A stretch of DNA of 64,000 bases from an uncultured Alphaproteobacteria bacterium (GTDB lineage: Bacteria; Pseudomonadota; Alphaproteobacteria; Rs-D84). The notes under the pieces were generated by a model, which was given only the letters and a program-made list of their open reading frames with translations, made no database searches and had not been told where the DNA came from. A program made the position numbers and the translations under genes. Shown piece after piece: positions 45,718 through 50,391 of the stretch. Location of the stretch: positions 43,520 through 107,519 of the forward strand of contig CALXXY010000003.1 of the NCBI GenBank assembly GCA_944392815.1, read 5' to 3'. Each line of letters opens with the position of its first letter. Within the stretch, counting starts at the first letter, position 1.

Positions 45718-46434
45718 TTATTGCGCCACCCGGCGCAAAAGTGCCAAATATTCCACATTGCCACTGCCGCCGCGAATGGGCGATTCAATAATACCAGATT
45801 GTTTATAGCCATTTTTTTCAAAGTTTTGTACAACGTTTTGAATGGCCGCGGCACGTTCAGATTCACTTTTAATCACACCATGCGCACGGGCGGCAACATT
45901 GCGGGAAACCTCGAACTGGGGCTTAATCAGGGCGATAATTTGCGGCGCATTCCATGCGACCAGCGCATCGCTGATGTTGGTTAATGAAATAAACGACACA
46001 TCAACCACAATCAAATCAACCGACCGCATGGGGGACAACGACCGAATATCCGTCTGTTCCAGCGCGGTCACACGCGCATCATTTTTTAACGAATCCACCA
46101 ATTGATTTGTGCCGACATCAACCGCAATCACATGCGCCGCCCCGCGCGATAACAGCGTTTCTGTAAAACCACCAGTACTGGCACCAACATCCAAACAAAC
46201 ATACCCCGCGGGATTCACCCCAAACGCGTCCAGCGCAGCCCCCAATTTCAAACTGCCGCGCCCAGTGGAATAGGGCAGCGCCCCGCCAACAATCACATCT
46301 GTGTCGGCAACGTCCATACTCGGCTTTTGCGCACGCGCCCCATTCACAGTCACCAGACCCGATTTAATCGCCGCCGCCGCGCGCGCCCGCGTGGAATACA
46401 GATTTCGTGAAACCAGTGCGATATCTAATCTCAT
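45718..46434 (-). CDS. tlyA: TlyA-family rRNA (cytidine-2'-O)-methyltransferase
   Basis: S4 domain (MRLDIALV), LDVGASTGGFT, DVSFISL, LIKPQFE and GNVEYL. Start set at ATG 46434. Confidence 0.93.
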   Translation of the reverse strand: MRLDIALVSRNLYSTRARAAAAIKSGLVTVNGARAQKPSMDVADTDVIVGGALPYSTGRGSLKLGAALDAFGVNPAGYVCLDVGASTGGFTETLLSRGAAHVIAVDVGTNQLVDSLKNDARVTALEQTDIRSLSPMRSVDLIVVDVSFISLTNISDALVAWNAPQIIALIKPQFEVSRNVAARAHGVIKSESERAAAIQNVVQNFEKNGYKQSGIIESPIRGGSGNVEYLALLRRVAQ

Positions 46435-46515
46435 ACCGAAAATTGTACCGCAGCATTCACGTAAAATCAAATAAGTCCTTGCACCACCCGCGCACACGCG
46501 ATAATATAACAAATG

Positions 46516-46726: not shown

Positions 46727-47170
46727 ATGAAAAAACATTTAATACTGGTCGGGGTGTTTTCCGTGGCCATAGTCCAATCACAACCCGCGATGGCCGTGAC
46801 GAAGTGCGTGGCGTTAAACAGCCGCAGTACAACGTGTGCATATGCAAGTTCAGAATTCGATGTTACTGATTGGACAACAACATGCACTACAAACGATGTA
46901 AGTATTCCGATAAAAGGCATAGGGATATGTGCTAATGCAAGTGCTAGCGCCCTAGGAACAACAACAACACAACTAGACCTGTCGTCCACTGCTGATGATA
47001 ACAAATATTGTTGGTGCCGTATGATAAGTCCTGCTGTGTCGCGCTGGGTGTATGTCAACTCAACCCCGACAGCGGGCGATTGTCACCATAGGTGCGCATC
47101 ATACTGCGCGACGAATGTTCGTGATACACCGCTCTTTCGGCGTGGAATGTTCGGCTCGCTTTCTGACTAA
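46727..47170 (+). CDS. Secreted Cys-rich protein (CWC...CxxxCAxxC type)
   Basis: GGGAGG RBS, signal peptide ending AMA and eight Cys residues. Confidence 0.82.
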   Translation: MKKHLILVGVFSVAIVQSQPAMAVTKCVALNSRSTTCAYASSEFDVTDWTTTCTTNDVSIPIKGIGICANASASALGTTTTQLDLSSTADDNKYCWCRMISPAVSRWVYVNSTPTAGDCHHRCASYCATNVRDTPLFRRGMFGSLSD

Positions 47171-47182
47171 TGGGGGCGCACA

Positions 47183-47509
47183 ATGAAAAGAATACTGATT
47201 TTATTTGCATTATGTTGTCCGGTATCTGCGATGGCCCTGGATATAGAAGGTGGAGTAGTCGTTGGTCCGCCAGTGCAGGCAATAAGCACCCCATCAACTT
47301 CATGCCCGTCGGGTTATACTGCGGTGGTCGAGGAACATATGGATATTGCGAACAGTTCATGCCCATCGGGCTATACGTCCGCCGGCACAGCAACCAGTTG
47401 TATCGCGTCCAACCCCGGCGGGTCGTGTATTATGTACGCCCCGGTGGGTGTATCGTATACAGACACCACCGGCATATATGAATTCGAACAACCCTGCGCA
47501 ATGGAATAA
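47183..47509 (+). CDS. Small secreted Cys-rich protein with CPSGYT repeats
   Basis: G-rich RBS, signal peptide, two SCPSGYT motifs and C-terminal YTDTTGIYEFEQPC. Confidence 0.85.
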   Translation: MKRILILFALCCPVSAMALDIEGGVVVGPPVQAISTPSTSCPSGYTAVVEEHMDIANSSCPSGYTSAGTATSCIASNPGGSCIMYAPVGVSYTDTTGIYEFEQPCAME

Positions 47510-47854
47510 ACCACCCCGGCACTTCGTGCCACCCCTCCGCAGAGGGGAACTTTGCCCCGCAACGGTACGTAGCTAGTTCCCCTCTGCGGAGGGGTGGCGC
47601 GCTTTGCGCGACGGGGTGGTTTACTCGTGACTCGTGAGTGTGTCGCTCGGGCGCGTTGCGCCCTGTGCGTATCCTCGTATTTATTCGGTCTGCACTTCGT
47701 TTGACCTCATATACTCGGATTCATCGCGAGCAAAGCGTGGCGATCCAGTAAATAAAAAGCACTGCGGGCGAATGCTCGCAGACATATTGCACTGGATTGC
47801 CACAGTCGTACGACAACGTTTTCAACGTTGATCGTACTCCTTCGCAATGACAGG
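47510..47854. repeat. Mosaic REP-like element: inverted Y pair (REPIN-like) plus module Z
   Basis: ACCACCCCG...CCACCCCTCCGCAGAGGGGAACT (47510-47551) has an inverted copy at 47575-47620. 47730-47854 matches 25023-25148. Confidence 0.85.
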
Positions 47855-48588
47855 GGGATAGTATGCCCGAATAACGTGTCGCACCCGAACGCCATCCGCC
47901 CCATTTTGACATATTTTTTTATTCAAAAATTACTTTAATTTATACATATATCTATATATTTTTAGTAAATTTTTAAATTTTATACAATAATACACCATTT
48001 TAACATCAAAAATACACCAAAAATCGCTGAAAACCCGCAGAAATCCGCCATTTTTTGCATTTTTACGGTCAGAATAGGGCACAAAAACCGATTTTTCCGC
48101 CCCCGACAATGACAAAAAACGGCCACACAGGCAACCAAAACCACAGAAACACATAAAAACACATTATATCACTAAATACAAAGTGTTATTTTATTTTTAC
48201 AATAAATATCTTCAATAAATTTCACCAATAAATATGCGTAAAAACATTCACAAAAAAAATCCGAAACACGCCCGATACAAAAACACGCCGCACAAAACTG
48301 CACGAAACAAAAAAATCACCAAGTCAAAAACTAAACCCAAAATTCATCGTGCTATGACGCAGATGAATTTTATTTAACGTACATTTATATGTTCATCTGC
48401 GCCACAGCGAACAAAAAATAATACCGACGACAGCGACAACACACATCACAGCAAATTTTTATCACGCGCGACTACACACACATTTTCACAAATTATAATA
48501 TTTGACACGTCCGACACACAAAACCACAAAACAAATCTGCTTGTATTCATGTATCATTTTGGAACACACCAACACATCATATTCTCGT

Positions 48589-48791
48589 TATATTACGTAC
48601 AGTTTTTATGAGCCCCGGCGACCACATAATCCTCATATATTATGTATAGTTTTGGGGGCGCCAGCACTCCACATTCCTGTTATATTATGTATAGTTTTAT
48701 GAGCCCCAGCGGGCACATAATCCTCATATATTATGTATAGTTTTGGGAGCGCCAGCACTCCACATTCCCATTATATTATGTATAGTTTTAT
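48589..48791 (+). repeat. Array of five XerD-arm-like 18-mers (TATATTATGTATAGTTTT) at 45-47-bp spacing
   Basis: Copies start at 48589 (two mismatches), 48636, 48681, 48727 and 48772. The spacers alternate between two types, giving a 91-bp higher-order unit. Confidence 0.92.
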
Positions 48792-48808
48792 GAGCCCCGG
48801 CGAATAAA

Positions 48809-48836
48809 ACTATACATAATATACATTATGCGCCTT
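48809..48836 (-). other. Chromosomal dif site (XerCD dimer resolution site)
   Basis: The minus strand reads AAGGCGCATAA-TGTATA-TTATGTATAGT, compared with E. coli dif GGTGCGCATAA-TGTATA-TTATGTTAAAT. It is intergenic, and gene orientation and octamer skew switch here. Confidence 0.85.
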
Positions 48837-49262
48837 TTGGCATGGTTTACAAATCGGTGTCCCCTGGGGCGAAAAACTGGCCGAAATTTCGTCCTGACAC
48901 ACAACAAAACGGCAACAAAAAAATACGGTACAAAAATGAATATAAATATAAACATCACTGTGGCGCGAACAATAATAAATCACACGACAAACACAAAATC
49001 ATCGCGCAAACGTCGCCACATCGACAAACTTTTTATAATTTGCACGATATTTGCCGTATACCTGACAGCCATCATTTTTATCATCACGACATAATATGAA
49101 ACAACGAAAATACGCCCCGGTCCAACAAAACCGCCCTGTTCCGCCGTCCACCCCACCAATTACCACACGACGCCAAAACGAAACACGCCCCGGCGGCGGC
49201 GCGCAAAAAAAACACAAAAAACGGCGGAAATTCGCCGTTTTTTACACATTTCACCACACAAA

Positions 49263-49835
49263 TCACCGTGATTTGCGGCCGCCATGGGCCACTTTCGTGA
49301 TTTTTGTAATTTTATCCCTGGCAACCCGGGTCACAGTTTTAATCCCCTTTTCTAAATCACTGGGTTGGGCAGGTATAATTTGCTCGGCCTGTAATTTCGA
49401 ACAGCAATTTGGGCATTTTGTCGCCTGGATATTTATAGTAGATTTACAATACGGGCACGTCCGCGTCGTCACGGCCTTTTTCGCACGCAATTTGTTCATC
49501 ACGCGCACCATTAAAAACACCGCAAACATAGTAATCAGAAAACTGACCACAGTATTCAAAAACACACCTATATTCATAGTGGCGGCCCCGGCGGCCTGGG
49601 CTTCGGCCACAGTGTTATAGTGCGCACCCGGCGCCCCACCCGACAGAACGATAAAAAATTGCGAAAAATCAATATCCCCGATCAGCATACCGATTGGTGG
49701 CATAATAACATCTTTGACCAGCGAATTAACCATAGTCGTCATGACACTGCCGACGATGATACCAACGGCCATATCAATCGCGCTGCCACGTTCCAAAAAC
49801 GTTCTGAATTCGGACAACAATTTATTTTTAGCCAT
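49263..49835 (-). CDS. mscL: Large-conductance mechanosensitive channel with a C-terminal zinc-ribbon
   Basis: EFRTFLERGSAIDMAVGIIVG, SLVKDVIMPPIG and CPYC...CPNC. Confidence 0.95.
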   Translation of the reverse strand: MAKNKLLSEFRTFLERGSAIDMAVGIIVGSVMTTMVNSLVKDVIMPPIGMLIGDIDFSQFFIVLSGGAPGAHYNTVAEAQAAGAATMNIGVFLNTVVSFLITMFAVFLMVRVMNKLRAKKAVTTRTCPYCKSTINIQATKCPNCCSKLQAEQIIPAQPSDLEKGIKTVTRVARDKITKITKVAHGGRKSR

Positions 49836-50391
49836 TTTTTTCACCTTTGCCATTATTCAAATAATCTTTTAATTCAGCGACCACCTTGTTCAGTGTTTTC
49901 CGCAAACTTTCATCGCGCGTTTCCACGGTAATATCAGCGGTTGCATAAATATCATATCGTTCATCAATCAATTGCGCCAAAATTTTCCGACTGTCCGTGT
50001 GCAGCAACTGCGGCCGCGTATGCCGAAACCCAGTTCGTTTTACCAACAAATCCAAATCCGCCCGCAGCCACACAGACACCGCGCGTTCCAACACCATTTT
50101 TCGCACGGCCGGGGTTATAAATGCGCCCTCGCCTGTGGAAATAACCTTTAACGCCGGCGGCGTATCAAACAGCCGTTCAATGACCCTCTGTTCAGCGCGA
50201 CGAAATTCGGCCTCGCCATACATGGCGAAAATATCCACCACGCTGCAACCGGCTGCGGCCTCGATTTCTTTGTCTGAATCAACGAACGGAATCCCCAGCC
50301 GTCGTGCCAACGCGCGCCCTACACTGGTTTTACCGGCCCCCATCAGCCCAACCATAACAATCGGCTTGTTCAGTTTTATATTTTCTTTCAT
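49828..50391 (-). CDS. aroK: Shikimate kinase
   Basis: VGLMGAGKTSVG, FVDSD, GEAEFR and RPQL. Start set at ATG 50391. Confidence 0.93.
   Translation of the reverse strand: MKENIKLNKPIVMVGLMGAGKTSVGRALARRLGIPFVDSDKEIEAAAGCSVVDIFAMYGEAEFRRAEQRVIERLFDTPPALKVISTGEGAFITPAVRKMVLERAVSVWLRADLDLLVKRTGFRHTRPQLLHTDSRKILAQLIDERYDIYATADITVETRDESLRKTLNKVVAELKDYLNNGKGEKNG

Follow-up and report, generated by a model that had tools for sequence, protein, structure and literature searches.

Why should a chromosomal dif site be accompanied by a row of further copies of one of its own arms? The question arises from a stretch of 64,000 nucleotides (the window) belonging to Candidatus Enterousia, a small gut alphaproteobacterium with a genome of about 0.9 Mb. 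The genus belongs to the order Rs-D84, and the genomes are mostly smaller than 1 Mb (PMC12306168). The features of the locus are listed in Table 1, where the positions are those of the window.

Table 1. Features of the dif locus and of its surroundings in the window.
Feature	Position	Strand	Details
tlyA/FtsJ-type methyltransferase gene	45718..46512	-	Conserved neighbour on the XerD side of dif
Two small cysteine-rich protein genes	46727..47509	+	Signal-peptide-like starts; between dif and tlyA only in some relatives
Non-coding gap	47510..49262		1.75 kb; holds dif and the array; plus strand A+C-rich
Tandem array	48581..48803	+	91-bp double unit, 2.4 copies; two diverged unit types of 45-46 bp
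XerD-arm copy 1	48589..48606	+	Two mismatches; farthest from dif
XerD-arm copy 2	48636..48653	+	Exact
XerD-arm copy 3	48681..48698	+	Exact
XerD-arm copy 4	48727..48744	+	Exact
XerD-arm copy 5	48772..48789	+	Exact; inverted relative to dif; 22 nt between its 11-mer and the dif arm
Near-perfect palindrome	48772..48823		52 bp; copy 5, GC-rich gap, dif XerD arm and 4 nt of the centre
dif	48809..48836	-	XerC arm 48836-48826, centre 48825-48820, XerD arm 48819-48809; 11-6-11 layout read from the sequence
Terminator-like hairpin	49212..49247	-	After mscL, upstream of dif
mscL-like gene	49263..49853	-	XerC side of dif; conserved neighbour; name from reading of the translation

The sequence of the 28-mer, its uniqueness, its synteny and the convergence of KOPS-like motifs upon it in relatives, together with the occurrence in the genome of xerC, xerD and an ftsK gene with the gamma domain, establish it as the working chromosomal dif of Candidatus Enterousia. 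The inner halves of its two 11-nt arms are palindromic around the 6-nt centre, and its 20-nt core is identical in the relatives. The site is unique in the 927-kb draft genome, where the next best matches to the core have 4-5 mismatches out of 20, and it is present in a single copy in 24/24 relatives of the same genus; it was also found in other families of the order. The order mscL-dif-tlyA is constant among the relatives. The preliminary description of this DNA had reported a near-canonical dif at this place and had raised the question whether it is the only full one in the genome: sequence, uniqueness and synteny agree with both points. The features set out by Carnoy and Roten (PMC2731167), namely a non-coding location, a palindromic structure, a low G+C content and a conserved XerD arm, are all present here, and the same source reports high variability right outside the 28-mer across the Proteobacteria. 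The locus thus shares with the proteobacterial dif/XerCD/FtsK system the 11-6-11 layout, the conserved inner palindrome, the single copy, the non-coding position, the encoded XerC, XerD and FtsK-gamma and a converging KOPS-like polarity, and it differs from that system in that dif is accompanied by extra XerD arms. The proteins encoded by the genome are a XerD-like protein of 296 aa, a XerC-like protein of 307 aa and an FtsK of 751 aa carrying the gamma domain; the XerC and XerD scores are the best for the right model in each case, yet they fall under the NCBIfam equivalog cut-offs.

The preliminary description looked to the GC skew to confirm that the locus lies at the terminus, and in this respect it was not borne out. 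The skew is negative on both flanks of dif in the window and the contig, and no switch occurs within 100 kb either way of dif in the relatives G003 and G013. In the complete circular genome of the relative G137 (958,618 bp), the cumulative skew is lowest at about 180 kb and highest at about 690 kb, while dif lies at 571,006, about 120 kb or 12-13% of the chromosome away from the maximum, as against a distance within 3%, outliers included (at most 3%), in a survey of Proteobacteria and Firmicutes (Kono et al.; PMC3025954). The dnaA gene is also located within a skew domain of the same sign. The skew of G137 is lopsided, with a domain of about 500 kb at about +0.11 (corrected for gene orientation), which includes dif and dnaA, and the rest at about -0.05; lopsided domains were also noted in contig C1 of G003. 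In the genome under study (G000), contigs C2, C3, C4, C9 and C11 are strongly skewed, and C1, C5-C8 and others are nearly unskewed.

It is the KOPS-like polarity alone that converges on dif. KOPS is the motif that orients FtsK in E. coli, and the motifs counted here are modelled on it. In G137, GGGNAGG lies on the plus strand in 18/18 cases from 200 kb up to dif (the last at 568,988) and on the minus strand in 13/13 cases from dif up to 900 kb (the first at 596,742). In contig C1 of G003, where dif is at 388,644, GGGCAGG occurs in the forward direction up to 387,953 and in reverse from 389,871 onwards, so that dif lies 0.7 kb beyond the last forward copy and 1.2 kb ahead of the first reverse one. 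In the genome under study, 7/7 motifs in 92 kb on the XerD side point to dif, and the XerC side, over 15 kb, has a single KOPS-like 7-mer, which is directed away from dif. The fact that the motif flips strand at dif in the relatives indicates that dif is the working FtsK/XerCD site, and since the skew switches elsewhere, FtsK appears to be guided to dif and not to the skew switch. On the stretch of about 120 kb that separates dif from the skew maximum of G137, the KOPS-like motifs are carried by the C-rich strand.

A 5-kb mobile island at 46.7-51.6 kb was considered and rejected, since minus-strand mscL-like and aroK-like genes, both named from the reading of their translations, are located there and the synteny is conserved. 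The mscL-like gene gave PHROG matches only to families with no known function, and its product has a C-terminal extension with two CxxC pairs resembling a zinc-ribbon tail. The two cysteine-rich proteins, of 147 and 108 aa, gave no Pfam or PHROG match, and in other species they are encoded elsewhere in the genome. The plus-strand ORFs flanking the non-coding gap had no match in Pfam or PHROGs, and several of them overlap real minus-strand genes. The intergenic DNA, in this gap and in other stretches, shows the same A+C-rich plus strand, with short repeats of the ACAAAA/CACAAAAC type, and the GC skew amounts to -0.25 in the 48-50 kb interval. The Rfam search of the gap yielded no family above the gathering score; with E values of up to 1, there were only sub-threshold matches with miRNA and leader models, which we take to be hairpins. 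One long hairpin (47524-47602), which has sub-threshold miRNA-precursor matches on both strands, is located just 3' of the small secreted-protein gene and is probably a two-way terminator.

The extra arms lie in this gap, on the XerD side of dif. Their repeated part is the 18-mer TATATTATGTATAGTTTT (plus strand), which consists of the last 4 nt of the dif centre, the 11-nt XerD arm and TTT outside it; it is unchanged in copies 2-5 and has two mismatches in copy 1. All five copies are oriented opposite to dif, at start-to-start distances of 47, 45, 46 and 45 bp, and two types of spacers alternate along the array, for which Tandem Repeats Finder reported 90% matches and a score of 374. In the 927-kb draft, 5/5 copies of the exact 11-nt arm fall within this locus, whereas thirty shuffled 11-mers used as controls gave 0-5 scattered copies each; the clustering of exact arms at the dif locus is more than chance. 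When neighbouring unit types are compared, 0/18 positions differ in the arm and 12/29 in the spacer (p = 0.001). The number of copies, their orientation, spacing and composition, the alternation of the spacers and the preservation of the arms while the spacers diverge had all been noted in the preliminary description, and each of these points was confirmed. The units carry the XerD arm and no XerC partner. A decayed XerC-like or direct arm within the units was proposed at one stage and dropped, the similar bases being the ordinary distal flank of the single-copy relatives. Sequences resembling promoters (TCCACA, 16 nt, TATAGT), which occur in the array at 48668 and 48759, are no commoner than in shuffled sequences.

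The possibility that the array is an assembly artefact, also raised in the preliminary description, was addressed with Logan contigs: in three runs of a single study, which may be the source sample, overlapping pieces cover the array without any difference. No single Logan contig spans the whole array, and the copy number given here is therefore a minimum. A run of a second study contains a related strain with a shorter array. The depth of the Logan contigs is highest over the dif core, which we attribute to other Enterousia present in the samples and not to copy number.

An arrangement of this kind recurs in the relatives, as the preliminary description had suggested should be looked for. An inverted arm core situated 10-40 nt beyond the dif arm was found in 93/257 genomes of the genus, against 2/257 for a reversed-pattern control; as in all the counts that follow, these are related genomes and the statistics were drawn up without a tree, and relatedness weakens each of them. 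At least one extra XerD arm is present within 1.2 kb of dif in 30/45 non-redundant loci. Among the exact extra arms of these 45 loci, 22 are inverted and none is direct on the XerD side, while 13 are direct and none is inverted on the XerC side; all 35 exact arms therefore turn their outer end to dif. The arms with one mismatch obey this rule less strictly (11 inverted and two direct on the XerD side, two direct and two inverted on the XerC side). Pairs of arms on opposite strands within 700 bp are convergent in 23/23 genomes, among the matches listed (150 of 217).

The gap between the two arms falls into classes of 11-14 nt (13 genomes), 20-25 nt (55 genomes) and 30-36 nt (24 genomes), with a single case at 17 nt. 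The gap lengths thus step by about 10 bp, the vector strength at period 10 being 0.76 and the 99.9th percentile of the null 0.34. The gap is usually a short GC-rich palindrome, the sequence of which varies between species. At the gap centres of many species (48790-48808 in the window), a loose GC-rich theme is visible, consisting of GCTG followed after 1-4 nt by GC or the complement. Since the genomes are related, common descent instead of selection could account for both the gap classes and the orientation rule.

Several species carry arrays whose periods and spacers differ from those seen here. Close relatives differ in copy number, with a single copy in G274, five in the present genome, four or more in L078 and seven or more in L080, the arrays of L078 and L080 both running to the contig end. 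Contig C4 of G057 starts with three arm copies spaced 77 bp apart. Many of the copies in relatives show one or two differences from the dif arm, mostly at the outer positions; the copies farther from dif carry mismatches, here and in L078, and the array copies retain TT(T) outside the arm. Extra arms are absent from 15/45 loci (three of which have less than 120 bp of sequence on the relevant side), including that of the complete long-read genome G137. Searches with the own arm of each of eight loci from other families of the order yielded no extra arms. The XerC-side arms mentioned above are lone direct XerD arms located 218-520 bp from dif in 13/45 loci. In front of these arms, of which those at -234 in L010, -270 in L014, -241 in L086 and -245 in L093 are examples, the bases TGNGGA are often seen; they resemble TGCGGA, the centre of the phage dif-like site. 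A lone XerC-side arm is possibly a hybrid site that an integration event left behind. The authors of the preliminary description knew of no account of such an arrangement, and our literature search, the coverage of which left out most subscription journals, likewise brought up no report of XerD arms arrayed next to a chromosomal dif.

The copy nearest to dif forms a long palindrome with the dif arm (Table 1), which has 25-nt arms that are 92% complementary, with 2 nt between them; as single-stranded DNA it is predicted to fold at -15.2 kcal/mol (z = -6.3), and 0/200 shuffled sequences fold as well. Such a palindrome might be extruded as a cruciform or hairpin pausing replication or transcription at dif, and the strength of the fold and the fact that the palindromy of the gap is kept across species are in keeping with a role of the DNA structure itself. 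This would leave array copies 1-4 and the XerC-side arms unexplained, however, and the 10-bp classes of the gap point to the geometry of duplex DNA. In addition, mscL has a strong terminator of its own before dif, and the palindrome is not followed by a T-run. We consider an explanation in terms of DNA structure very improbable.

Comparison of the relatives further demonstrates, at the level of the sequences, that the array arose by tandem duplication, with a copy number that changes fast. In addition to the gap and the inverted arm, the duplicated unit takes in a few distal flanking bases, and in L080 the unit boundary coincides with the outer edge of the dif arm. Simple tandem duplications with such a boundary are also what would be expected if the feature were a neutral by-product, in which an inverted duplication beside dif gave rise to the palindrome and to a minisatellite derived from it, which then persisted and expanded by slippage and conversion. 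A palindrome can hold both its arms alike by conversion without the second arm needing any function, and the inverted arm would then seem to be conserved because it was repeatedly corrected against the selected arm of dif. The gap that is itself palindromic, with sequences specific to each species, is as expected of self-correcting palindromes, and the differences in copy number between close relatives and strains, the mismatches in the distal copies and the absence of the feature from one third of the loci (15/45) all suit this explanation. Conversion against dif cannot, on the other hand, reach copies 2-4, which are mutual direct repeats, and yet their 18-mers are identical while the spacers differ at 12 of 29 positions. 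The direct arms on the XerC side lie outside any palindrome and still obey the orientation rule, and gap lengths stepping by about 10 bp are not expected from hairpin geometry. A neutral origin is rather unlikely in our opinion.

The extra arms might also be connected with single-stranded DNA phages, either as relics of folded attachment hairpins of the CTX type or as decoys or landing pads by which the host shapes integration at dif. Integration of gokushoviruses at dif through XerCD is established in E. coli (PMC7062461), and Microviridae prophages (with capsid F, pilot protein, Rep and ORF5 genes) were found inside the dif of two relatives. These gokushovirus-like prophages of about 4.5 kb are located in L079 (4940-8564) together with L152 (contig C4 of G274, about 21.9-26.4 kb) and in L099 (4590-8175). 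L079 and L099 accordingly show the feature characteristic of IMEX, i.e., mobile-element genes between dif-like sites. At the left junction in G274, the host XerC arm is followed by a XerD-like arm of the phage, which is separated by 3 nt from an inverted and complete phage dif-like site. This succession of an arm, a short gap and an inverted arm is the one that a folded double attachment site, such as the attP of CTX phage, should show. A 17-bp attP made up of an arm and a centre is known for some Xer-exploiting Vibrio phages (PMC12715192), and a patchy presence with a fast turnover would fit a host-parasite conflict.

At the right junction in G274, the palindrome known from the window comes after the regenerated dif and includes one inverted arm of the host type. 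The palindrome being intact beyond the prophage, the host feature predates the prophage; it also differs from the phage arms, and the inverted arm is a host feature and is not phage-borne. The resemblance to CTX-type attachment sites and to the dif-integrating Microviridae thus lies in the inverted Xer arms facing each other across a short gap and in the use of the dif of this genus by such phages, whereas the copies in the window have neither a XerC arm nor a mobile element, the host arm is unlike the phage arms and the feature stays in the chromosome. The genome under study yielded no second full dif-like site and no microvirus genes, all the tblastn hits having E values above 0.1, and the neighbours are housekeeping genes. 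Simple integration would leave direct and not inverted half-sites on the XerD side, and 0/22 exact arms there are direct. In IMG/VR, no host-type convergent arms were found beside dif, the four hits being unrelated palindromes in large contigs, and the phage-type arm pair gave 0 matches in viral contigs. A phage origin or a role in shaping phage integration is distinctly unlikely on these grounds.

A further comparison, drawn in the preliminary description, is with the XDS of Bacillus subtilis, which it describes as separate sites in the terminus. There, according to work cited in PMC11840125, PMC10945525 and PMC11894783, Smc-ScpAB is acted upon by XerD sites made of an arm only and also by an artificial array of XDS, so that XerD bound to the present array might be supposed to unload or block the SMC condensin at the terminus. 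The two systems have in common dif-like sites in the terminus region thought to be used by XerD outside recombination; they differ in that the sites here are within about 250 bp of dif and in that Smc-ScpAB was not found. No SMC hinge was detected in this genome, the SMC_N matches being confined to frames of 378 and 570 aa and to ABC-type ATPases, with no SMC-sized frame, and ScpA was found neither in this genome nor in any of 41 genomes of the genus, 31 of which are of high quality. The analogy with Bacillus therefore fails for want of its target, and we give it hardly any credence.

The reading we prefer, to which we assign a probability of roughly 0.38, is that the repeats, which on the strength of their sequence are candidate accessory XerD half-sites, would stop FtsK in a polar manner and owe their number to tandem duplication beside a working dif. 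In E. coli in vitro, half-site-bound XerD is about five times more effective in stopping FtsK that arrives at its outer face than FtsK that arrives at its inner face (Graham et al.; PMC2800217), and activation by FtsK requires the bases immediately outside the XerD arm (Bonné et al.; PMC2673442). XerD bound to the extra arms would show its outer face to dif, on the XerD side in this genome and on both sides throughout the genus. The half-sites would then act as a one-way barrier: FtsK guided by KOPS would enter, FtsK overrunning or leaving dif would be halted by the outer faces of XerD, and both FtsK and XerD would be kept concentrated at dif. The phasing of the gaps would follow from two bound XerD molecules, or XerD and FtsK, standing in a fixed geometrical relation to each other. 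With every outer face turned towards dif, half-sites that would let FtsK in and stop its exit seem to us, by this analogy, the reading to be favoured. What is shared with the in-vitro roadblock (PMC2800217) is a XerD arm lacking a XerC partner, the orientation of which sets the FtsK stop in that assay; that roadblock was an engineered substrate, while the putative half-sites described here are natural ones, arrayed beside dif in a fixed orientation.

Several points count against the half-site reading. The feature is dispensable, given the 15/45 loci that have no extra arm. The one or two mismatches in many copies of the relatives and the two in the farthest copy here imply that selection on each copy is weak at best. 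FtsK arriving from the XerD side would have to pass five bound XerD molecules, which could be a hindrance instead of a help. Accessory DNA beside a Xer core site is otherwise familiar from the plasmid sites cer and psi, where a non-repeated stretch of about 180-200 bp, located on the XerC side, is bound by PepA together with ArgR or ArcA. That extra DNA shapes the recombination complex; in the present locus the extra DNA consists of XerD-arm repeats and lies on the XerD side. Taken further, the half-site reading would make XerD half-sites with a set orientation and helical phasing a new class of dif accessory, a natural one-way gate trapping FtsK and the activation of XerD at dif, evolved in an SMC-less lineage with reduced genomes, in which dif lies about 12% away from the skew switch and is attacked by dif-integrating single-stranded DNA phages; in this extended form we regard it as doubtful.

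The site dif is treated as a lone 28-bp element with surroundings deemed irrelevant, and the extra arms found here are present genus-wide, with a fixed polarity and a phased spacing. The position of dif and of the KOPS convergence, far from the skew switch, bears on the question whether replication ends at dif, and the integration of Microviridae at this dif in uncultured gut bacteria provides a further handle from the same locus. Provided that XerD binds to the arms, the polar stopping of FtsK by half-site XerD seen in vitro would have its first natural counterpart here, and the architecture of the DNA outside dif would be able to tune the last step in chromosome segregation.
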